Position numbers and translations under genes: made by a program. From positions 1-8,427 of the forward strand of contig CAZFVS010000042.1 in the NCBI GenBank assembly GCA_964522265.1: a DNA stretch of 8,427 nt, given 5' to 3'. The notes beneath the pieces are model-generated. The model worked only from the letters and a program-made list of their open reading frames with translations, was not told the DNA's origin and ran no database searches. Source of the DNA: an uncultured Gammaproteobacteria bacterium (lineage in GTDB: Bacteria; Patescibacteriota; Microgenomatia; Daviesbacterales; UBA10151). Positions 1-8,427 of this stretch are shown piece after piece; position 1 is the stretch's first letter; each line of letters starts with the position of its first letter.

Positions 1-1
1 A

Positions 2-355
2 ATGCATTTTTTAAGAAGAATCCTGGATGTGTTTTTGGGTAAAATGATCAGTATTCTTTTTATGTCTACAACTCTTACTGATGTGAGTTGTACTTTAAGG
101 TTGACTAACAGGAAGGGTTGGAAAAAAATCGCTTCAGAATGCAAGGTAGGTAGTGCCTTGTTTGCCACACAGTGGCTCTTACTTGCTATCAAAAATAATG
201 TTAAATTTATTGAAATCCCGATAAATTTTAGGTCAAGAGTAGGGCAGTCTTCTCTTACTGCAACTTTTTTTGACCAGGCCAAATGGGGTATCAGGATATT
301 TACTTATATCTGGAAAGTTTGGATCTATGCAAGAATGGATAAAAAACTTCACTAA
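2..355 (+). CDS. Glycosyltransferase family 2, Dpm1/GtrB/ArnC-like polyprenyl-phosphate sugar synthase; C-terminal fragment whose 5' end probably lies upstream of the window
   Basis: The frame is open to the window edge, so the ATG at 2 is probably internal. The translation contains 'TDVSCTLRLTNRKGW', which matches the acceptor-loop pattern D-x-S-G-F-R of this class. It also contains 'VKFIEIPINFRSRVGQSSL', matching the I-x-E-V-P-I-x-F-x-x-R-x-x-G-x-S-K signature of polyprenyl-phosphate hexose synthases. A hydrophobic/amphipathic tail (WGIRIFTYIWKVWIY) follows. Stop TAA at 353-355. Confidence 0.7.
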   Translation: MHFLRRILDVFLGKMISILFMSTTLTDVSCTLRLTNRKGWKKIASECKVGSALFATQWLLLAIKNNVKFIEIPINFRSRVGQSSLTATFFDQAKWGIRIFTYIWKVWIYARMDKKLH

Positions 356-2048
356 AATAAAGGTGCAGCTGGTAATTATTGTTTTAATTACCTTTCTGGC
401 TTATTCGAACATTCTGCAGAATGATTTTTTAGCAGATGACAGGGCGTTTATCCTGCAGTGGGACTTGCCCCGTGACATCAGGAATATCCCAAATTTATTT
501 ATCAGTAAAACCAACCCTCCCGGGCTCCCGCAAGACTACCGGCCTGTCAGGACAACCTTACTGGTCTTAAGTTACCAGCTTTGGGGTACAAATCCGGTTG
601 GGTATCATTTTGAATCAATGATAATCCACCTTATTATTACAATTCTGGTCTATTTTATAACCAAGGAATTAGTATTAAGTATTAAGTATCATGTATTACG
701 CAAAGACCCCTTAATACATAATACATACTACATAATACCTTTTCTGACTGCCCTGCTTTTTGGACTGCACCCGATTCATACAGAAGTAGTTGATTATGTA
801 ATGGTTAGCTTTAACACTGTGTCCGTAGCTTTTTTATTGTTGTCCTTCTACTTATACCTGAAAACTTTGAAAAAACTGTCGGTAGCTTTTTTTCTCTTGG
901 CCCTCTTTACGTACGAGATAGCCTTGGTATTGCCATTTCTAATTATGCTCTATGACTTCTGTTTTAAAACCATTAAGAAAAATTATCTAAAAAATTTTTC
1001 TTTAAGATATCTGCCTTACTTTTTTTCGGTATTTTTATTTTTATGGATCAGAGCCGGTTTGGCGGGGATGGGAAATGCAGAGAGGGGGCAATATCTGCTG
1101 GGTAGTTTCTATCTGAATATGTTAATTATGCCAAAATTAATCTGGAAATACATTGAGCTTTTGGTTTTTCCTTTAAACCTCTCGTTTATTCATAGAATTG
1201 CTAAGGGCTTTGAAACTTATCCTACTCCGTATTCAAATTTTGCATCCATTCAAAAAATGTCAATACTTAGTCCTGAAGTTATATTGCCAAGCCTGGTTCT
1301 GCTGGTTTTAGTAATCATTCTGTTTTGGAGTTTAAAAAAATTTCCGGTAATCTTTTTCTGTCTAGGATGGTTTTTTATAAGTATGTTTCCTTTTTTCAAC
1401 CTTATCCCGATAGGCGTCACGTTTAGCGAAAGGTACACATATTTGGCTTCAGTCGGTTTTGTTATTCTCATAACATATCTGTTCCACATCTGTTACTATC
1501 GGATCAGATGGAAGAAATTGGCTGTTTTACTGCTTGTGTTAATTTTAATTTTTTTATTTTTCAGGACGTATATCAGAAATTACGACTGGAGGAATATGGA
1601 GACATTTACAAAAAGTATTTTGAGGGTCAATTCGGAAAGTCTGATAGCCCGTTACAATTTAGCCCTTTATTATAAAGATACTGATCCCGGCCAGGCAGTT
1701 TTAGAGTACCGGAAGCTTTTGGAGATTGACCCCAGAGTTAAAGAGGCTCATTTTGACCTGGCTAATGTTTATTTGGCAACAGGTTACATCGAGCTTGCTG
1801 CACTGGAGTTTAACAGGACTTTAACGCTGGACTCAAATTTTATTGATGCTTATATTGCTTTAGGGCAGATCAATTTATCAAAAGGCCAGCTTAATATAGC
1901 AGAAGAATACTTCAAAAAAGCTTTGAATGTTGATCCAAGAAAATACCTGTTATTTCAGCTGCCGAAGAATGAAAGTGAAATTGCAATATCCCGCTCGCAG
2001 GCACTGGCAGGTTTACAAGCAGTCAAAGAGAAGCTTTCCCGGGAGTAA
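327..2048 (+). CDS. Polytopic GT-C-type glycosyltransferase with three C-terminal TPRs (TMTC-like / PMT_2-TPR family), paralog 1
   Basis: Long ORF with many hydrophobic helices. First-loop acidic motif 'AYSNILQNDFLADDRAFI' (DD at 435-440). 'YRPVR' motif. 'GLHPIHTEVV' (768-785), which matches the HP(I/V)HTEAV motif I recall from TMTC proteins. 'SERYTYLASVGF' followed by a TM helix and 'NYDWRN', then TPRs. All of these are shared with the ORFs at 5004 and 7154. The track start at 270 is a TTG and would overlap the upstream gene by 86 nt. ATG 327 gives an N-terminus (MQEWIKNFTKIKVQLVII) that aligns with paralog 2 (MKISKVNVQLTII). Confidence 0.85.
   Translation: MQEWIKNFTKIKVQLVIIVLITFLAYSNILQNDFLADDRAFILQWDLPRDIRNIPNLFISKTNPPGLPQDYRPVRTTLLVLSYQLWGTNPVGYHFESMIIHLIITILVYFITKELVLSIKYHVLRKDPLIHNTYYIIPFLTALLFGLHPIHTEVVDYVMVSFNTVSVAFLLLSFYLYLKTLKKLSVAFFLLALFTYEIALVLPFLIMLYDFCFKTIKKNYLKNFSLRYLPYFFSVFLFLWIRAGLAGMGNAERGQYLLGSFYLNMLIMPKLIWKYIELLVFPLNLSFIHRIAKGFETYPTPYSNFASIQKMSILSPEVILPSLVLLVLVIILFWSLKKFPVIFFCLGWFFISMFPFFNLIPIGVTFSERYTYLASVGFVILITYLFHICYYRIRWKKLAVLLLVLILIFLFFRTYIRNYDWRNMETFTKSILRVNSESLIARYNLALYYKDTDPGQAVLEYRKLLEIDPRVKEAHFDLANVYLATGYIELAALEFNRTLTLDSNFIDAYIALGQINLSKGQLNIAEEYFKKALNVDPRKYLLFQLPKNESEIAISRSQALAGLQAVKEKLSRE
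672..738. repeat. Imperfect AT-rich inverted repeat (27-nt arms, 23/27 complementary, 13-nt loop 699-711) embedded in-frame in paralog 1
   Basis: I paired 672-698 (gtattaagtattaagtatcatgtatta) with 712-738 (taatacataatacatactacataatac) base by base, and 23 of 27 positions are complementary. The left arm is built from GTATTAA units and the right arm from (T/A)TAATAC units. The segment encodes VLSIKYHVLRKDPLIHNTYYII. Confidence 0.75.
1647..1952 (+). other. Three consecutive 34-aa tetratricopeptide repeats of paralog 1
   Basis: ARYNLALYYKDTDPGQAVLEYRKLLEIDPRVKEA / HFDLANVYLATGYIELAALEFNRTLTLDSNFIDA / YIALGQINLSKGQLNIAEEYFKKALNVDPRKYLL. Each unit is 34 aa and carries the canonical small/large residue pattern (L-G-x-x-Y ... 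A-x-x-x-F/Y-x-x-A-L-x-x-x-P). Confidence 0.85.
2041..2045 (+). promoter_or_regulatory. Shine-Dalgarno-like GGGAG, 5 nt upstream of ATG 2051
   Basis: The sequence reads gggagTAAatATG. The RBS lies in the last codons of the upstream gene, which is consistent with translational coupling. Confidence 0.55.
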
Positions 2049-2050
2049 AT

Positions 2051-2902
2051 ATGGTAACAAAAATAATAGTTTGTCCAAACTGTAAAAACAAATCGAGCAT
2101 AATTTTAAAAGTTGATTCAGGAAAATTCAAAATCTTTTTCTGCCGGCAATGCCTGACCGGTTTTACCTATCCTGCCCCCAAAAATATTGCAAAATATTAT
2201 TCCAAAAAGTATTGGGTACCTAAAGGTTGGATTGGGCAGTTAAAAGTAAAAATTTATGCTTTTTTCCAAAGCAGAAGGTTAAAATGGGTTCAAAAAAAAT
2301 TACACCGGGGAAAAATTTTGGATGTGGGGGCGGGTGAAGGAATTTTCGCAAAGAAGATAGGGGCTCGATTTACGGTAGTTGGTATCGAACCGCCTTTTTC
2401 CAAAATAAAAAATAAACATATAATTAAAGTTGATTTTTTAAAATGGCAAACTAATCAAAAATTTGATGCAATAGTTTTTTGGGAAAGCCTGGAACATACA
2501 AGAGTCCCTCAAAAATATCTTGAAAAAGCATATAATCTGTTGAAAAAAGGAGGCCTGGTTTTTATAGAATATCCTGTCCTTGATTGTTTGGAATCAAAAA
2601 TTTTTGGTAGGTTTTGGTACCATCTTGATTTGCCAAGGCATCTTACTCATTTTACAGAAAAAGGGTTGGAAATTATAACTGCAAAGACAGGTTTTAAAAA
2701 AATTGACAGCAAAGATGTATTTGCCCTTGAATATATGCTGCCCGGTTTTTTATCAAGCGCTTTAAATATTAAACTTAATGAAGGTTCACCTGCGATTTTA
2801 ATTTCATTTGCGGTATTCTTGATACCGGCATTTATTATAGAATGGTTATCTTATCTTTTTAACCAATCACCAATCCGGGTTATGATTGTAAAGAAAGTTT
2901 AA
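2051..2902 (+). CDS. Class I SAM-dependent methyltransferase with an N-terminal 4-Cys zinc ribbon and a C-terminal transmembrane anchor
   Basis: Zinc-ribbon pattern CPNC-x17-CRQC at the N-terminus. Motif I 'ILDVGAGEGIFA' (2315-2341). Post-I acidic 'VVGIEP'. Motif II 'FDAIVFWESLEH'. Motif III 'LLKKGGLVFIEYP'. Hydrophobic C-terminal helix 'AILISFAVFLIPAFIIEWLSYLF'. Confidence 0.85.
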   Translation: MVTKIIVCPNCKNKSSIILKVDSGKFKIFFCRQCLTGFTYPAPKNIAKYYSKKYWVPKGWIGQLKVKIYAFFQSRRLKWVQKKLHRGKILDVGAGEGIFAKKIGARFTVVGIEPPFSKIKNKHIIKVDFLKWQTNQKFDAIVFWESLEHTRVPQKYLEKAYNLLKKGGLVFIEYPVLDCLESKIFGRFWYHLDLPRHLTHFTEKGLEIITAKTGFKKIDSKDVFALEYMLPGFLSSALNIKLNEGSPAILISFAVFLIPAFIIEWLSYLFNQSPIRVMIVKKV

Positions 2903-2908
2903 AAACTT

Positions 2909-5017
2909 ATGACTGAGCCTAAAATAGCAGCAATCCTGCCCGCATATAAAGCAGAAAAAACATTATTGCCCTTTTTAAAAACTTTACCGGCAGGAGTTTT
3001 TGATGAAATTATTTTAGTTGATGATTGCTCACCGGATAAAACTTATGAGATTGCCAAAAAACACCGCGGGATCAAGGTATACCAGAACCCAAAGAATTTA
3101 GGTTATGGGGGGAATGTCAAACAATGTTTGAAAATCGCTTTGAAACATGGGGCGGATGTTATGATTGAAATCCATCCTGATGGTGAATACGGGGCAGATG
3201 GGATTGTTCCGGCGCTTTTGGAAATTAAAAAAGGGGCACAATTTGTACTTGGTAACCGTTTTGCTAAAAACCCCCTAATATCGGGTATGTTTTTATGGAA
3301 GTATGTTTTAATCAGGGTATTAAATTTAATTCATAATCTGATTTTACGGACAAATATTCCCGATTTGCACCAAGGTTTTCGGGTTTATACCCGGCAGCAA
3401 TTAAACAGAGTAAATTTTAAAAAGATGAGTGATGGTTATATTTTTAGTTTTGAAATTATCATAGAGACAATCTCTAAAAAAATGCATATTGCGAGCGTTC
3501 CTGTCAGTATAAAATACAAAGGTGCCAAAAGGGGAGCTTCCTTTAAAAATAGTTTTATATATGGTTTACAAACTCTTGCAATTTGTTTAAGGGGAAACAG
3601 CTATTTTTTAATTCCAATATTTTTAATAGTTGTTCAGGGGATATATTCAATTTCATCAATAGGCGAACTGAGGCTTGAGGAAGCGATTGAATCTATAAGA
3701 AGTGTTTACTGGTTTCAAAATCATCTGGTCTGGAATGGTGGATATACAAATTTAGGATGGTATACGATTTTGGCGGTTGTCTATAATATCTTTGGTTTTA
3801 GTGTTTATAGCGCTAAGTTTGTTAAACTTTTTGTTTACATTTTAGCGCTTTTATGTCTTGCAGCTCTTTTAAAAAAATACTTAGGTGAAAAATTAGCTAT
3901 CGTTCCTCTTTTAATGATTGGATTCTCACCAACCCTCATATATTTAAACAGTTTACAGATATCGCATGGCATAGAGGTAAGTTATTTTTTAATCTGCTCT
4001 TACTTAATTTCTAACTTAAATTTTAAAAAAGGAGCTGAATGGGGATTACAAACAATTCTTGGAATTATAGCTGCAATTGCCGCTCTTTCATATCCGGCAT
4101 TTATTTACTACCTGCCAATCATTAGTTTTTATTATTTATATCAATTAAAAAATCAGTGTAAAAAGGCATCAATAAGCTTAATTGTATTTTGCGGGTATCT
4201 TTTACTTAGTATTTTATATATTAAGAATAGACAAATTCTTATATATGATACAAACAGTAATTTAGGATTATTTAGAGGAGGAGGCAGGTTAGAATTTGAT
4301 TTGGATCTTTTGGTAAGTAACTTTAGAATAATGTTTTCAGATTTATTTAAAATCCCAGTTAGTTATTATTTTGAACCATTAAAAACAGAGTTTTCAGATT
4401 TTTATCCAATGTTTGTAGTAATTTTTGTTATGGTTATGAGTTTAGTGCTTTTTCTTAAAATAAAAAGACTACGGTTTTTTATTGGATTTATTTGGATTTG
4501 TTTTTTAGGTTATTCAATTATTTTAAACTTATTTGGACCTATTGGGTTAGGAGGGGTAAGAAGGGAAACAATTATTCTTACTTTATTTTATTTACTTTTT
4601 GTAATTGTTTGGAAATTTATCTCAAACATAAAGAAATCTTCTTTCGGCCGGAATTTAGTTTTAATAGTTCTTGGTTTATTACTTATACATCACATCTTTG
4701 TTTACCCCCAAAATTTGAAACAATTGAATAAACAGAGTAAATTTGGTAACTGGTTTGCTCCAAATTCGGAACTTAATTTTAAAAGTCAAATCAAAACTAT
4801 TGAAGCAGAAGATCTATGGGTTGATTGCGAGGAAAATGTTAATCCCTATGCGCATTCAAGATGTGCAGGTTTAAGTATAAACTATGCCCTAGTAGCAGGC
4901 GAGTGTTTATGGAACAGGCGGCTTTGTCATAAAGTCATAGCTTTTGATGCAAAAAACCAAAAACATTTTTTGATTAATTTAGATTTTTGGGGGGAGGGAT
5001 CACATGCTGAACCATGA
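2909..5017 (+). CDS. Fusion protein: N-terminal Dpm1-like GT2 domain (about 2909-3595), polytopic PMT_2/ArnT-like GT-C membrane domain (about 3596-4700), and a soluble tail of about 98 aa with 4 Cys (about 4720-5014)
   Basis: GT2 domain: 'AAILPAYKAEKTL', 'IILVDDCSPDKT', 'NLGYGGNVKQC', the DxD-equivalent region 'VMIEIHPDGEY', 'DLHQGFRVYTR', and 'FEIIIE...HIASVPVSIKYKGAKRGASF'. The ORF continues without a stop into at least 10 hydrophobic helices. These begin with 'RLEEAIESIRSVYW' (acidic first loop) and 'NIFGFSVYSAKFVKLFVYILALLCLAALLKKYLGEKLAIVPLLMIGFSPTLIY', which fits the PMT_2 pattern F-G-x-S-x-x-x-x-R/K ... S-P. The tail is WVDCEENVNPYAHSRCAGLSINYALVAGECLWNRRLCH. Confidence 0.8.
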   Translation: MTEPKIAAILPAYKAEKTLLPFLKTLPAGVFDEIILVDDCSPDKTYEIAKKHRGIKVYQNPKNLGYGGNVKQCLKIALKHGADVMIEIHPDGEYGADGIVPALLEIKKGAQFVLGNRFAKNPLISGMFLWKYVLIRVLNLIHNLILRTNIPDLHQGFRVYTRQQLNRVNFKKMSDGYIFSFEIIIETISKKMHIASVPVSIKYKGAKRGASFKNSFIYGLQTLAICLRGNSYFLIPIFLIVVQGIYSISSIGELRLEEAIESIRSVYWFQNHLVWNGGYTNLGWYTILAVVYNIFGFSVYSAKFVKLFVYILALLCLAALLKKYLGEKLAIVPLLMIGFSPTLIYLNSLQISHGIEVSYFLICSYLISNLNFKKGAEWGLQTILGIIAAIAALSYPAFIYYLPIISFYYLYQLKNQCKKASISLIVFCGYLLLSILYIKNRQILIYDTNSNLGLFRGGGRLEFDLDLLVSNFRIMFSDLFKIPVSYYFEPLKTEFSDFYPMFVVIFVMVMSLVLFLKIKRLRFFIGFIWICFLGYSIILNLFGPIGLGGVRRETIILTLFYLLFVIVWKFISNIKKSSFGRNLVLIVLGLLLIHHIFVYPQNLKQLNKQSKFGNWFAPNSELNFKSQIKTIEAEDLWVDCEENVNPYAHSRCAGLSINYALVAGECLWNRRLCHKVIAFDAKNQKHFLINLDFWGEGSHAEP
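4993..4998 (+). promoter_or_regulatory. Strong Shine-Dalgarno-like GGAGGG, 5 nt upstream of ATG 5004
   Basis: The sequence reads ggGGAGGGatcacATG. It lies inside the 3' end of the fusion gene. Confidence 0.55.
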
Positions 5018-7157
5018 AAGACAATTTACAATTTACAATTTTCAATTTTCAATGAAAATTTCAAAAGTGAATGTTCAGTTAACAATAATTATTTTATTGA
5101 CAATTTTCGCTTATTCCAATATTTTCTCAAACGGTTTTGTGATTGATGATAAGAGTTTTATTGGGGGTTGGGAGGGGACTAAAAGTTTAGCAAACATCCC
5201 GAAATTTTTTGAGGGCAATGTTCCGCCGGGTCATGAAGGGGTTTACAGGCCCTTAAGAAGCGTGCTTTATGCAGTATATTACCAGGTGTTTGGCACAAAT
5301 ATTTTTGGTTACCACCTTCATTCTTTATTGGTGCATCTGGCAGCAACTATGCTGGTGTATTTTATAATCCAGGCTATTTTTGCGACATATAAGACTGATA
5401 AGTCATATAAGACCTATATTCCTTTTGTCACTGCCCTTTTTTTTGGCCTCCACCCCATCCATACAGAAACCATTACATATATAGCTTCGGGGATGGATGC
5501 AACAGGTATGATGCTTATGTTTTTATCCTTCTACCTATACCTTCGGGCACAACTCACCCCGGGGGTGAAGAAAATGCAGTTACACCCCCGGGGTGTAATC
5601 CTGGGAGCCTCAGTATTTTCTGCATTGGCAGCCTATTTTACCAATGAAACCACACTTATTTTGCCACTGCTGTTAATGCTGTATGATGTCTGTCTTCAAA
5701 ATCGTAAATCTTCAATCCTAAATCTTAAATCACTTGTAAAATATAGTCCATATTTGCTGGGAGTTATTTTATATTTAGGAATTAGATTTTTCGGTTTGCA
5801 TATCAGCTCAAGAGGGCCGTATCTTGCAGACAGCATCTATTTAACCGTACTCACCATGACTAAAGTGTTTGTAAAATATATCTCCCTTATGTTTTTGCCT
5901 TTAAACCAGGCAAACAACCATGCTGTTTCTAAAGGGATCGAGGCATTTGTTTACAGGGGTTACAGCCCTGATGCAATAAAGGCCCAAACATTATTTGATG
6001 CAGAAATATTACTCAGTGTTGTTGTTATTGTTGCACTTCTCATGTTTGCCTGGAAGATGAAGAAGAAACTACCCATTGTAACTTTTGGGATTGGATGGTT
6101 TTTTATTTCTCTTTTGCCTGTATCTGAAATTGTCCCGCAGGGCTCAATGTTGGGTGAGAGGTTTTTGTATATACCGTCGTTTGGGTTTTGCTTGCTGTTG
6201 GGATTGTTTTTTAGGGAGGTCATACGACGTATCAGACTTATTGGTCTCATAGGACTTATAGGACTGATAGTTTTTTACTCGGTTCAGACTTATCAACGGA
6301 ACAAAGATTGGCATGATGAACTAACTCTTTGGTCTAAAGATATCGCAGTCTATCCTGATGAAAATGCCTACGCATATTTTCAACTGGGGAATGTTTATCT
6401 GGAAAATAACCAGCTGGATGAAGCACTCTCCAACTATAATCGTTCTTTTGAAATCAACCCTCATTTTGCAGTGGCTGTTGCAAGTGCAGGCAGGGTTTAT
6501 GAGCGGCAGGACAATAAAGATGAGGCGGTAAGAAACTATCAAAAAGCCATAGATACAGACCCTAATTTTTGGGAAGGGTATATTATTTTAGGGGCTATAA
6601 ATATTGAGAATGGCAACTTTGATATTGCAAGTAAATATTATCAAAAACTTGCTGCAATTTATCCGCAGTATACTGCTGCTAAAGATATTTTAGAACAGCT
6701 TTCCAGGATCGAACCGGGTACTAAAAATCTCAAAGTAAGAGAGGGTGGTATCTATCAGGCATTCAGTAATGGGGCAGTTGCACTGACATATCCTGCGGGT
6801 TGGAAATTTAGAGACGGCAAGACAGAGTTTAAACTTACAGACAGAGATGAGAAACTAAAGATTGATATTAAAAAAACTGAAACGAAAGAAAGTTCCCTTA
6901 CGGACTATCTTGAATCAAGAAAAGATACTTTTGGGTTATTGAAGAACCAAGGGTCGGCTAAAATACCTCAATTTGACAATTCTTTTGTAAAAGTCTGGCA
7001 GGATCCCGTGGAGGGGGATATTTTAAAATTGCAGTTTTTCCTTTTAAAAGGAAGTGATATTTTAGAGATTTTAGTTTATCCGGCAGATTCGCCTTTGATG
7101 GGTCAATTTAATGAGATTTTAGCAAGTATTAAAATAGTAACATCACCCAAAAAATGA
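5004..7157 (+). CDS. Polytopic GT-C-type glycosyltransferase with three TPRs (TMTC-like), paralog 2, plus an extra C-terminal domain; alternative start ATG 5052
   Basis: Same motif series as paralog 1: 'AYSNIFSNGFVIDDKSFI' (DD 5145-5150), 'YRPLR', 'GLHPIHTETI' (5451-5468), 'GERFLYIPSFGF', 'NKDWHDE', then TPRs. It is collinear with paralog 1 along the whole membrane domain. ATG 5004 has a good SD. ATG 5052 gives an N-terminus that aligns better with paralog 1. Confidence 0.85.
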   Translation: MLNHERQFTIYNFQFSMKISKVNVQLTIIILLTIFAYSNIFSNGFVIDDKSFIGGWEGTKSLANIPKFFEGNVPPGHEGVYRPLRSVLYAVYYQVFGTNIFGYHLHSLLVHLAATMLVYFIIQAIFATYKTDKSYKTYIPFVTALFFGLHPIHTETITYIASGMDATGMMLMFLSFYLYLRAQLTPGVKKMQLHPRGVILGASVFSALAAYFTNETTLILPLLLMLYDVCLQNRKSSILNLKSLVKYSPYLLGVILYLGIRFFGLHISSRGPYLADSIYLTVLTMTKVFVKYISLMFLPLNQANNHAVSKGIEAFVYRGYSPDAIKAQTLFDAEILLSVVVIVALLMFAWKMKKKLPIVTFGIGWFFISLLPVSEIVPQGSMLGERFLYIPSFGFCLLLGLFFREVIRRIRLIGLIGLIGLIVFYSVQTYQRNKDWHDELTLWSKDIAVYPDENAYAYFQLGNVYLENNQLDEALSNYNRSFEINPHFAVAVASAGRVYERQDNKDEAVRNYQKAIDTDPNFWEGYIILGAINIENGNFDIASKYYQKLAAIYPQYTAAKDILEQLSRIEPGTKNLKVREGGIYQAFSNGAVALTYPAGWKFRDGKTEFKLTDRDEKLKIDIKKTETKESSLTDYLESRKDTFGLLKNQGSAKIPQFDNSFVKVWQDPVEGDILKLQFFLLKGSDILEILVYPADSPLMGQFNEILASIKIVTSPKK
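5021..5053. repeat. Tandem 7-8 nt repeat (A)CAATTT(T), about 4.3 copies, between the two candidate starts of paralog 2
   Basis: The units are acaattt (5021-5027), acaattt (5028-5034), acaatttt (5035-5042), caatttt (5043-5049) and caatg (5050-5054). The final partial unit runs into ATG 5052-5054. Confidence 0.8.
5388..5414. repeat. In-frame 9-bp tandem repeat x3 (tataagact / gataagtca / tataagacc) encoding YKT-DKS-YKT
   Basis: 'catataagac' occurs exactly at 5386-5395 and at 5404-5413. 'ataag' recurs with a 9-nt period at 5389, 5398 and 5407. Confidence 0.75.
5555..5595. repeat. Perfect 13-bp GC-rich inverted repeat (CACCCCGGGGGTG ... CACCCCCGGGGTG) with a 15-nt spacer, in-frame inside paralog 2
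   Basis: The reverse complement of 5583-5595 equals 5555-5567 exactly. Each arm is 11/13 G+C against an AT-rich background, and each arm is also nearly self-complementary. The spacer is aagaaaatgcagtta. Confidence 0.85.
6228..6272. repeat. In-frame 9-bp tandem repeat x5 (cgtatcaga cttattggt ctcatagga cttatagga ctgatagtt) encoding RIR-LIG-LIG-LIG-LIV
   Basis: Direct reading of the sequence. The units share the pattern C-T/G-N-A-T-N-G/A-G-N. The array lies in the TM helix that follows the ERFLYIPSFGF motif. Confidence 0.7.
6366..6671 (+). other. Three consecutive 34-aa tetratricopeptide repeats of paralog 2
   Basis: AYAYFQLGNVYLENNQLDEALSNYNRSFEINPHF / AVAVASAGRVYERQDNKDEAVRNYQKAIDTDPNF / WEGYIILGAINIENGNFDIASKYYQKLAAIYPQY. 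Confidence 0.85.
6711..7154 (+). other. Paralog-2-specific C-terminal soluble domain of about 148 aa and unknown function
   Basis: Paralog 1 has no counterpart; its tail after the TPRs is only about 35 aa. The sequence alternates polar and hydrophobic residues and looks beta-rich (AVALTYPAGWKF, EFKLTD, LKIDIKK, FVKVWQDP, LKLQFFLLKG, ILEILVYP). The 'Y-P-x-G-W' opening resembles PsbP/DcrB(DUF1795)-type domains, but that resemblance is weak. Confidence 0.5.
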
Positions 7158-8427
7158 TTGGTCTTATATTGTCAAGGGTTTATCAGTATTTATTGGTTCT
7201 TACGGTAATACTTCTTTTTTACGGAAATACTTTAGGTAACGGATTTGTTTACGATGACCCTGCGTTTATTACGAATAATGACTTAGTTCATAGTTTATCA
7301 AATATCCCAAAAATACTTACTGGATGTTTAATGGGTTTTTCGGGTGCAACCTGCCAGGATGCAGGAGTCTATTATCATCCGTTTTTATTTCTACAGTTTT
7401 TGTTTACTTATCAAATTTCGCCAGATCCATTTTTATTCCATGCAGTAAATTTATTAATTTTATCAGGAACAATCATGCTGGTACTGATTTTTTTTGAAAA
7501 GATTTTTGGAAAAGGATTGTTACCTATTCTGGCGGTGCTGCTAGTACTTATAAATCCTATCAACTCCGAGATTGGTAACTTTGTTTCTGCAGTAAATGAT
7601 CAATACTTGGTGATATTTTTTATTTTAGGCTTTTTAAGCCTGATAAAATTTTCAAAAACAGGAACTAAAAAGTATCTTTATCTGTCTTTATTTTTTTACT
7701 TTCTGGATTTAATAGCCAAAGAATCAGCAGTATTTTTATTTATTCCGGGTCTATTTTACTACAGATTTCTTACAAAATCAAAAAGCAAGCTTCCATTATA
7801 TAAATTAGTCATGTGGTATCTTATCCCGCTCGTGTTCTATTCGGGTTTAAGAATTGTTGTACTGGGAAAGTTGATCCATAATTTAACCGGTTATCATGAT
7901 ATGGATTTTTTTACCCAAATTTTAACCGGAATCTCAATTTACCCATTATATTTATCAAAACTGTTATATCCTTTGCCCCTTAATGCTCAACACGATCCTC
8001 TTGTGATAAGGAGCATGAACCTGAGGTTTTATCTATCTTTAGGGTTTTGGATTGTAAATGGTTGGTTGGCTTATCTTCTAATCAGAAAAAAGCTGTACCG
8101 GATATTATTTGGTTTCAGTTTAATTTTTTTATCGCTTGTGCCGGTGCTTATTTTAATCAATAAAATCGGGCGGTTTATTTTAGCCGAGAGGTATCTATTT
8201 TTACCAAGCATCGGCTTTTCACTGGTTGTTGTTGGATTCATGGTTAAGATTTTAGGAGCACACCTGAAAAATGTTAGGCTAAAATATATTCTTGTTGGGT
8301 TGTTTTTGATATATGTTGCGGGTAGTTGGTGGGTTGTATTCAACAGAAACAGAGACTGGAAGAATGAATTTACTTTTAACAAAAGTATAGCGGCATTCAC
8401 ACAAGATAACTTTGGGGTTTTGTATAA
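7154..8427 (+). CDS. Polytopic GT-C-type glycosyltransferase (TMTC-like), paralog 3, divergent; 3' end beyond the window. It is not in the supplied ORF track because no stop falls in the window
   Basis: I translated the frame by hand from ATG 7154 and found no stop through 8425. The ATG overlaps the TGA of the upstream gene (ATGA, 7154-7157), and the frame is closed upstream by TAA at 7130-7132. It shares the family motifs: 'FYGNTLGNGFVYDDPAFI' (DD 7253-7258), 'AERYLFLPSIGF' and 'NRDWKNE'. The position of HPIHTE is occupied by 'NPINSE' (7553-7570). Confidence 0.8.
   Translation, partial: MIGLILSRVYQYLLVLTVILLFYGNTLGNGFVYDDPAFITNNDLVHSLSNIPKILTGCLMGFSGATCQDAGVYYHPFLFLQFLFTYQISPDPFLFHAVNLLILSGTIMLVLIFFEKIFGKGLLPILAVLLVLINPINSEIGNFVSAVNDQYLVIFFILGFLSLIKFSKTGTKKYLYLSLFFYFLDLIAKESAVFLFIPGLFYYRFLTKSKSKLPLYKLVMWYLIPLVFYSGLRIVVLGKLIHNLTGYHDMDFFTQILTGISIYPLYLSKLLYPLPLNAQHDPLVIRSMNLRFYLSLGFWIVNGWLAYLLIRKKLYRILFGFSLIFLSLVPVLILINKIGRFILAERYLFLPSIGFSLVVVGFMVKILGAHLKNVRLKYILVGLFLIYVAGSWWVVFNRNRDWKNEFTFNKSIAAFTQDNFGVLY

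Follow-up and report, generated by a model that had tools for sequence, protein, structure and literature searches.

The TMTC enzymes, which cause human brain and hearing disorders, consist of a membrane-embedded glycosyltransferase domain of the GT-C type followed by tetratricopeptide repeats (TPRs), of which they have eight or more. They make up family GT105 of the CAZy classification (PMC10214176; PMC8724618) and are described as O-mannosylating proteins (PMC7801869; PMC10214176). Their activity was in 2021 still argued from sequence and models, according to Eisenhaber et al. (PMC7801869), who also report, from many prokaryotes that are poorly characterised, near full-length homologues in which TPRs come after the transferase domain; the example given there is AMJ42_05695 of Deltaproteobacteria bacterium DG_8 (24 % identity, E=3e-47). 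Prokaryotic TMTC homologues were thus already noted in that text, and they are an abundant, functionally uncharacterised kind. The DNA compared with them here is an 8427 bp stretch (the window), the complete NCBI metagenomic contig CAZFVS010000042.1. Six open reading frames (ORFs), A to F, all on the plus strand, fill the window, and profile and pairwise comparisons identify three of them, B, E and F, as true homologues of TMTC, which is their closest characterised family at the sequence level. The cluster is read here as a module that would glycosylate targets outside the cytoplasm from polyprenyl-phosphate-linked sugars, with secreted or surface proteins as the most likely acceptors; we put the probability of this reading at about 0.5. 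No characterised prokaryotic TMTC-type enzyme and no description of such an operon were found in the open-access papers and preprints searched, in agreement with an initial annotation of this DNA, made from its letters, which knew of none.

Even with a cutoff of E≤10, Pfam and NCBIfam returned nothing for the membrane parts of the three paralogues B, E and F, the TPRs alone being recognised; the link to TMTC was therefore tested directly with TMTC sequences. The seed was a human TMTC3 sequence 96 % identical to a database TMTC3; it retrieved 120 database proteins, the majority with PF08409 and with the name TMTC3 or protein O-mannosyltransferase, and only these were used in the tests. With the TMTC3 profile hidden Markov model (HMM), E scores 116 bits, B 84 and F 81; D is not matched. 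Conversely, an HMM of the window's own family, built from 93 relatives of E, matches 52 of 52 TMTC3 transmembrane (TM) domains with scores of at least 165 bits, the 15 best listed scoring 166–195 bits. BLASTP of the E TM domain against a fish TMTC3 gave two collinear high-scoring segment pairs (3e-10 and 6e-10) in which DD, YRP, HPIHTE, ER.LY.PS.GFC and RN.DW are aligned, and in a joint alignment of the 93 family members with 13 TMTC3 sequences the residues D49, P83, F147, P151, E215 and P299 are invariant. The TMTC likeness originally noticed in the three paralogues has profile and pairwise scores far above chance behind it, at an aligned identity to TMTC3 of 19–25 %. Other families fared differently. 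PMT (PF02366) and PMT_2 (PF13231) do not match B, E or F at E≤10; no MIR domain appeared in Pfam scans of the three, no YfhO or ArnT family matched them in Pfam or NCBIfam, and Wzy_C (PF04932) matched no protein of the window. The E TM domain likewise found no relative among the sequences of the PDB. The paralogues thus do not fall with O-antigen ligases or polymerases, or with GT-Cs of the lipid A-modifying type; their likeness to ArnT is one of fold, at 13 % identity.

B, E and F are diverged, collinear paralogues, as first described: B and E share 36 % identity over 565 residues (E=8e-96), E and F 26 % (E=2e-22) and B and F 24 % (E=2e-14). The series of five motifs initially ascribed to all three (N-x-F-x-x-DD, YRP-x-R, HPIHTE, ER-x-x-Y-x-x-S-x-GF and N-x-DW) is complete in the translations of B and E, but in F YRPxR gives way to YYHPF and HPIHTE to NPINSE, substitutions that hit R82, H150, H153 and T154, each at least 90 % conserved in the family. 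F retains the DD pair, KE, the ER..(F)..S.GF segment and RNRDW. Motif M1, the DD pair of the first outward loop, reads FLADD in B, FVIDD in E and FVYDD in F. Across the family D49 does not vary, and the conservation of D48 is at least 90 %. In M2 (YRP in B and E, YYHP in F) P83 is invariant and the SHKS part is not kept, the family having HEGV. The acidic residue of M3 is D in E and F and N in B, and E215 of M4, KE(T/Q)xxT, a motif whose Lys would bind phosphate and whose Glu would bind metal, is invariant. The ERxxY region (M7) reads SERYTYLASVGF in B, GERFLYIPSFGF in E and AERYLFLPSIGF in F, where the Y is replaced by F, and RNxDW, where the TPR region begins, takes the form RNYDW in B and RNKDW in E.

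An AlphaFold2 (AF2) model of full-length E from the family alignment has a predicted local distance difference test score (pLDDT) of 94.3 and a predicted template modelling score (pTM) of 0.90. A Foldseek search with this model was swamped by TPR proteins, the only matches returned, and the TM domain was therefore modelled and searched alone (pLDDT 93.5, pTM 0.93, 11 long helices). ArnT (5f15 and 5ezm) then came first, followed by Pmt4, STT3, AglB, EmbB and Pmt1-Pmt2, with probability 1.00, E of 1e-3 to 1e-1 and 10–15 % identity; every credible match is a GT-C, and so, in the model, is E. Short loops of E rich in Lys/Arg alternate with loops that lack them, which by the positive-inside rule gives an N-terminus inside and a C-terminus outside. 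This arrangement puts DD, YRP, HPIHTE, E215 and ERxxY outside the cytoplasm, and the TPRs after them as well, so that GT-C paralogues with extracytoplasmic TPRs, as envisaged at the outset, are what model, structural matches and loop charges all indicate. From this topology and the homology to published TMTC models, DD, HPIHTE and ERxxY would be expected to line one pocket. No TMTC structure was present among the PDB entries searched (releases up to April 2026), and ArnT is also the best template reported for the human TMTCs (PMC7801869).

Set beside TMTC1-4, the window proteins are alike in homology over the whole 11-TM GT-C domain, in motif order (DD, YRP, HPIHTE, the E of KE(T/Q), ERxxY, RNxDW), in TPRs that come after the last helix and lie on the non-cytoplasmic side, in the presence of several paralogues per genome and in having ArnT as nearest solved structure. 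They differ in their low identity to TMTC, in the absence of PF08409 and of the DW motif, in the loss of the KE Lys from B and E, in having three TPRs in B and in E, in the additional PsbP-like domain of E and in an operon that includes donor synthases. The donor lipid here would presumably be a bacterial polyprenol, and cadherin domains would not be expected in the host. The prokaryotic homologues of Eisenhaber et al. (PMC7801869) share the order of GT-C and TPRs and the poorly characterised prokaryotic hosts; to these the window adds an operon context (two GT2s, a methyltransferase and a putative second GT-C type) and a subfamily with a PsbP-like domain, rich in the candidate phyla radiation (CPR) and DPANN, neither of which is mentioned in the available portion of that paper.

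The two complete copies were initially said to end in exactly three TPRs. Three TPRs are indeed present in each, but E continues into a beta-rich domain. This domain has no Pfam PsbP match by itself, and its profile found only a chance-level match among PDB sequences; PF18933 (PsbP_2), however, matches 5 of 18 domains homologous to it, at best with 3.7e-6, and one matches PsbP (PF01789) at 0.011. At least 110 residues follow the third TPR in 40 of the 93 family members, about 30 of which have the PsbP-like domain and about 10 further TPRs. The TPR region of E is 88 % identical to that of its orthologue and 27 % to that of paralogue B, whereas the corresponding values for the TM domain are 73 % and 38.5 %. 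TPRs kept between orthologues and diverged between paralogues suit the pattern expected of paralogue-specific client recognition.

Both GT2s belong, on their nearest matches, with the polyprenyl-phosphate glycosyltransferases, which supports the Dpm1-type assignment made at first. A alone has no Pfam match, but its full-length orthologue in the closest related locus (L001, below) matches PF00535 (5e-12), AglJ (1e-17) and the haloarchaeal dolichyl-phosphate (Dol-P) hexose transferase family (1e-12), with DPMS (5mlz) and ArnC (9bhc) as best PDB matches. The GT2 half of D matches AglJ (2e-17) and PpgS (1e-16) in NCBIfam and, in the PDB, the Pyrococcus Dol-P-mannose (Dol-P-Man) synthase 5mlz (3.8e-8 over aa 4–200). 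C is, as initially proposed, an S-adenosylmethionine (SAM)-dependent methyltransferase by its Methyltransf_23 match; its N-terminus carries a CxxC...CxxC zinc-ribbon-like segment with weak Zn-ribbon Pfam matches, and its translation has the hydrophobic stretch AILISFAVFLIPAFIIEWLSYLF towards the C-terminus, a combination that suggests tethering to the membrane.

Loading of a sugar onto a lipid in the cytoplasm, flipping and transfer by an outer GT-C is the logic of Dol-P-Man-dependent O-mannosylation. The same sequence of steps has been worked out in the three-component systems, Gtr and ArnC/ArnT among them (PMC11127046). Applied to the window, A and the N-terminal half of D would each move one sugar from a nucleotide sugar to polyprenyl phosphate on the cytoplasmic side; C, probably tethered to the membrane, may methylate one such sugar or its product; a flippase, not encoded in the window, would take the lipid-linked sugar to the outer face; and four GT-Cs, namely B, E, F and probably the membrane half of D, would use it there. 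B, E and F would each have 11 TM helices; by homology with the TMTC models, DD, YRP, HPIHTE, (K/Y/N)E and ERxxY in the outward loops would bind metal, phosphate and sugar, and the TPRs of each paralogue would select its own clients, as in TMTC1-4. The three-component systems (GtrA/GtrB/Gtr*, ArnC/ArnT, CsbB/YfhO and the GT136 pentofuranose systems) are alike in pairing a polyprenyl-phosphate GT2 with an extracytoplasmic GT-C (PMC11127046). The window differs in its lack of a flippase gene, in TMTC-like GT-Cs with TPRs and in having four putative GT-C genes and two synthases rather than one of each.

The six ORFs are separated, in order, by a 29 nt overlap, a 2 nt gap, a 6 nt gap, a 14 nt overlap and a 4 nt ATGA overlap, a spacing compatible with translational coupling; the coordinates (Table 1) agree with the single-strand, coupled arrangement described originally. 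Because the window is the whole contig, A and F are truncated. The G+C content is about 35 %, and tRNA and Rfam scans found no tRNA and no Rfam family in the window. Short minus-strand ORFs within the genes were taken as spurious.

Table 1. Coordinates of the genes, domains and repeat described in the 8427 bp window
Feature	Position	Strand	Remarks
A, C-terminal part of a Dpm1/ArnC-type GT2	2–355	+	117 aa; truncated by the 5′ contig end; 78 % identical to aa 125–240 of the 241 aa GT2 of L001
B	327–2048	+	573 aa
B, TM domain	~327–1640	+	TMTC-like GT-C; TMTC3 HMM 84 bits
B, three TPRs	1638–1943	+	aa 438–539; Pfam TPR matches; followed by a 34 aa tail
C, SAM-dependent methyltransferase	2051–2902	+	283 aa; Methyltransf_23 8e-24; 68 % identical to the L001 orthologue
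D	2909–5017	+	702 aa
D, N-terminal GT2 domain, Dpm1/AglJ/PpgS-type	2909–3589	+	PF00535 1e-17 (aa 9–164)
D, C-terminal multi-pass membrane part	3590–5017	+	Candidate for a fourth GT-C; in-frame fusion with the GT2
E	5004–7157	+	717 aa
E, TM domain	5004–6338	+	TMTC-like GT-C; 11 TM helices predicted, N-terminus in, C-terminus out
Heptanucleotide tandem repeat, ACAATTT × 4.7	5021–5053	+	Tandem Repeats Finder score 52; 96 % matches; within the first 16 codons of E
E, three TPRs and capping helix	6366–6671	+	aa 455–556; Pfam TPR_2 in three stretches; AF2 helix pairs 455–552
E, PsbP-like beta-rich domain	6717–7157	+	~145 aa (aa ~572–717); AF2 strands 576–692, pLDDT >90
F, divergent TMTC-like paralogue	7154 to beyond 8427	+	at least 424 aa; truncated by the 3′ contig end after RNRDW; TMTC3 HMM 81 bits

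The closest locus, L001, belongs to Candidatus Daviesbacteria (GCA_016186955.1), and judged by its nearest relatives the window itself is probably from a Daviesbacteria-like CPR bacterium. Its genes run GT2, methyltransferase, GT2, membrane protein, E-type and F-type, the A-C-D-E-F block being syntenic with orthologues 68–95 % identical; D is represented by two genes with an ATGA overlap. The orthologue of F (615 aa, 83 % identical) runs on into TPRs and a C-terminal domain. L001 has no orthologue of B, which is 34–36 % identical to every paralogue there, and its methyltransferase gene directly follows the first GT2 (6321–7887). B is thus, by comparison with this syntenic block, an extra paralogue inserted right after the stop codon of A. 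The L001 set lies in a larger sugar-nucleotide gene cluster with three further TMTC-like genes and another GT2; a fourth further ORF has TPR matches only. Its neighbours include an NTP-transferase, a DegT aminotransferase, a hexapeptide acetyltransferase, C-methyltransferases and radical SAM genes.

The family to which B, E and F belong is large. A phmmer search with the E TM domain against 1.84 billion cluster representatives (50 %-identity clusters) gave 51,359 relatives at E≤1e-3, 19,036 at E≤1e-10 and 871 at E≤1e-30. In GTDB species genomes the signature [LFI]F[GA]xHP[IV]HTE occurs at 599 or more places, at least 588 of them in confirmed relatives, and its hosts include Patescibacteria, Woesearchaeota, Nitrospirota, Ignavibacteria, Omnitrophota, Planctomycetota, Acidobacteriota, Desulfobacterales and Myxococcota. 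When the 6 kb neighbourhoods of 84 related loci were surveyed, two or more TMTC-like ORFs were found in 21 and a related GT2 in 12. The members from Woesearchaeota and Altiarchaeota are single genes amid housekeeping genes. Conservation of the six-gene block in related genomes, a comparison proposed at the outset, is limited: the C-type methyltransferase recurs in L001 only, so does the full block, there without B, and L008, L010 and L011 have the block in part, with TMTC-like, D-type membrane and GT2 genes together. In addition to these three, L001 alone has a D-type membrane protein.

L008 and L010 are metagenome-assembled genomes labelled 'uncultured Gammaproteobacteria' and contain the closest genome matches to E after Daviesbacteria (42–50 % identity); they may be mis-binned, their gene content (tandem TMTC-like and D-type genes) being CPR-like. 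The metagenomic proteins on L002, L003 and L004 are 44–50 % identical to human TMTC3 and bear PF08409, with sparse, fragmented ORFs around them, and are probably intron-poor eukaryotic genes rather than bacterial ones. P0220 and P0240, metagenomic TMTC3-like proteins with PF08409, were rejected as bacterial for the same sparse and fragmented ORFs of eukaryote type on their contigs.

In L005, a Microgenomates locus on a 1.13 Mb contig, a tandem pair of TMTC-like genes precedes the gene of an 874 aa GT-C with TMEM260_N (PF11028) and TPRs (8508–14560). Close by are genes of the YfhO and Wzy_C families and those of a pilin-like N_methyl/LamG protein and of giant LamG/surface proteins of 1946 and 2115 aa. 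At this locus, then, relatives of two distinct families of animal O-mannosyltransferases are neighbours in a bacterium.

Donor synthesis combined with acceptor-specific transferases was the function first proposed for the operon. The GT2 subclass and the GT-C homology agree with the enzymatic side of that proposal; as to the acceptors, proteins are favoured because the nearest characterised family is protein-specific, because of the divergence pattern of the TPRs and because L005 is rich in surface proteins, and it is from these that we infer secreted or surface proteins as targets. Several observations weigh against this reading. PF08409 (TMTC_DUF1736), which with PF13231 had been named at the outset for profile searches, does not match B, E or F in Pfam even at E≤10 and is absent from the precomputed Pfam lists of the 120 family matches listed; B, E and F are therefore treated here as a divergent TMTC-like lineage outside Pfam's TMTC definition and not as certified GT105 members. 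The phosphate-binding Lys of KE is replaced by Y in B and by N in E, although it is kept in F (AKESAV). The DW of loop EL4 (M5), a metal ligand in the TMTC models, corresponds to x-H here, and 13 residues are inserted behind it. Both GT2s score far below the NCBIfam equivalog cutoffs, so that the sugar cannot be named from them. No flippase of the GtrA, SMR or MATE type was found among the six ORFs with Pfam and NCBIfam, though one could lie beyond either contig end, and 72 of the 84 surveyed loci are without a nearby GT2. The nearest solved fold to the E TM domain is ArnT. TPRs also occur in polysaccharide proteins of the BcsC, PgaA and LapB type, and the TPR region of E has weak matches to BcsC and PgaA models (E=0.02–0.03). 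Finally, GT2 and GT-C gene pairs classically decorate polysaccharides, teichoic acids and lipid A, and the known three-component systems modify glycans or lipids, not proteins (PMC11127046).

The last three points belong equally to the main alternative, a less probable one: decoration, in the manner of Gtr, CsbB-YfhO or ArnC-ArnT, of a non-protein envelope polymer (teichoic-acid-like, capsule or S-layer-anchoring polysaccharide) or of a lipid, with single sugars drawn from polyprenyl-phosphate donors. The several GT-C paralogues would then account for linkages or positions that differ, and the TPR and PsbP-like domains would serve for docking on the polymer or on its assembly machinery. A polyprenyl-phosphate GT2 beside a GT-C is the hallmark of such systems (PMC11127046), ArnT is the top structural match of E, and the A-type GT2 matches ArnC in the PDB; moreover, L001 sits in a typical glycan-biosynthesis cluster, and YfhO and Wzy_C genes adjoin the family in L005. 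Against these stand the sequence comparisons, in which the nearest characterised family is the protein-specific TMTC and not ArnT, YfhO or Gtr, and in which B, E and F lack any Wzy_C, YfhO or ArnT family match. The window also has no GtrA-type flippase gene, and the conservation of TPRs in orthologues with divergence in paralogues suits protein clients, although recognition of polymers would be compatible with it as well.

The membrane half of D was initially counted as a fourth GT-C-like domain. In its favour, hhalign aligns it with the B/E/F family over 343 columns (78 % probability, E=1.8e-5), and its own family has an invariant EE in the first, predicted outward loop and an invariant RR; on the other side, its PMT_2 match (E=0.002, 18.7 bits) lies below the Pfam cutoff of 26.1 bits, and its profile found nothing among PDB sequences. 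It is, in sum, a reasonable but not a secure candidate. It is 95 % identical to P0241, a stand-alone protein of 476 aa named 'glycosyltransferase family 39 protein' by NCBI, and the family detected comprises 30 proteins, all stand-alone and of 440–530 aa. The GT39 enzymes (PMT/POMT, including mycobacterial Pmt) share with the window proteins the GT-C fold, the acidic pair of loop 1 and, on the reading proposed here, a sugar donor of the polyprenyl-phosphate type; among the Foldseek matches are Pmt4 and Pmt1-Pmt2, and NCBI labels not only P0241, the orthologue of the D membrane half, but also the family member P0097 as GT39. They differ in that B, E and F have no PMT, PMT_2 or MIR matches and carry TPRs instead, and in that the PMT_2 match of D is subthreshold. 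A further parallel is mycobacterial Ppm1, in which a polyprenyl-phosphate mannose synthase and a membrane domain occur fused or split. D and its L001 counterparts are likewise fused in one organism and split in a relative, but the membrane domain of Ppm1 is Lnt-like and N-terminal, whereas that of D looks GT-C-like and lies C-terminal to the GT2.

Ppm1 also brings to mind that some copies may not be enzymes at all: F or the membrane half of D could be scaffolds, GT2 anchors, donor flippases or regulators, leaving one or two true transferases. We regard this as improbable. The substitution of R82, H150, H153 and T154 in F agrees with it, as do the lack of a PDB or solid Pfam match for the D membrane domain, the coupling of that domain to a GT2 (translational in L001, by fusion here) and the absence of any other encoded flippase from the window. 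F, however, keeps DD, KE, ER..S.GF and RNxDW, and its 83 % identity to its orthologue points to selection as a distinct subtype, while the D membrane domain has the first-loop EE and the RR expected of a GT-C and aligns with the TMTC-like profile over 343 columns.

D and the start of E depart from their orthologues. Relative to L001 (8565–8577) the window has a 5 nt deletion at 3589|3590, TTAAAATGAGGGG having become TTA-----AGGGG; the overlapping stop and start are lost, and a 229 aa GT2 and a 476 aa membrane protein are thereby fused in frame as the 702 aa D. The D membrane homologues in L008, L010 and L011 are stand-alone like the rest of their family, and what is seen in D could be a genuine fusion of recent date or else an error of assembly in an A-rich run. 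In the orthologue of E, translation starts in an ATGA overlap; the equivalent start (ATG 5014 of the window) is out of frame for E here and leads to a stop after 13 codons; one further heptamer unit would bring it into frame. E reads instead from the in-frame ATG 5004, with the Shine-Dalgarno sequence GGAGGG directly upstream, and the heptamer tract just behind it could be slippage-prone. Similar 7 nt tracts, however, lie elsewhere in the window, at 671–698, 712–738 and 5699–5731. That the fusion and the odd start are sequencing errors or pseudogenisation, and the operon as read non-functional, is hardly credible: the fusion does hang on five nucleotides in an A-rich run, 30 of 30 homologues of the D membrane half are stand-alone, the orthologous start of E is out of frame beside a repeat and the contig is only 8.4 kb, yet all six frames are open throughout and the four complete ORFs intact, the fusion is in frame and topologically sensible (cytoplasmic GT2 into the first TM helix), E has its own start with a ribosome-binding site, and the orthologues are well conserved.

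The reading as a module for protein glycosylation can be taken further, tentatively and as a serious possibility only: B, E and F may be the first prokaryotic TMTC-type protein O-glycosyltransferases, part of a family, very abundant in CPR bacteria, DPANN archaea and many further phyla without cultures, that forms a general multi-paralogue system acting outside the cell on surface proteins (pilins, giant adhesin-like proteins, S-layer proteins), in which the TPR and PsbP-like modules pick the clients and the GT2s and the methyltransferase supply a possibly methylated donor. If so, TMTC-type O-glycosylation would be an ancient prokaryotic invention, and the structure and mechanism of GT105 could be studied on a compact enzyme that comes with its donor synthase. 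The additions made here are the donor-synthase setting, a putative second type of GT-C, the PsbP-like module and the size of the family. A bacterial homologue of 570–720 residues that retains most of the proposed ligand-binding residues and is encoded beside likely donor synthases could serve for rebuilding the reaction, for structure determination and for tests of the roles of DD, YRP, HPIHTE and ERxxY. CPR and DPANN organisms live attached to host cells, and the acceptors of this large, often tandem family would bear on how their surfaces are constructed; the family suggests that uncultured microbes possess a class of envelope enzymes that is very abundant and still unexplored.

A further repeat was noted within E. 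A 9 nt tandem repeat of four copies with 77 % matches (6235–6270) encodes aa 411–422, RLIGLIGLIGLI, in which the motif LIG recurs where the last TM helix of E begins.

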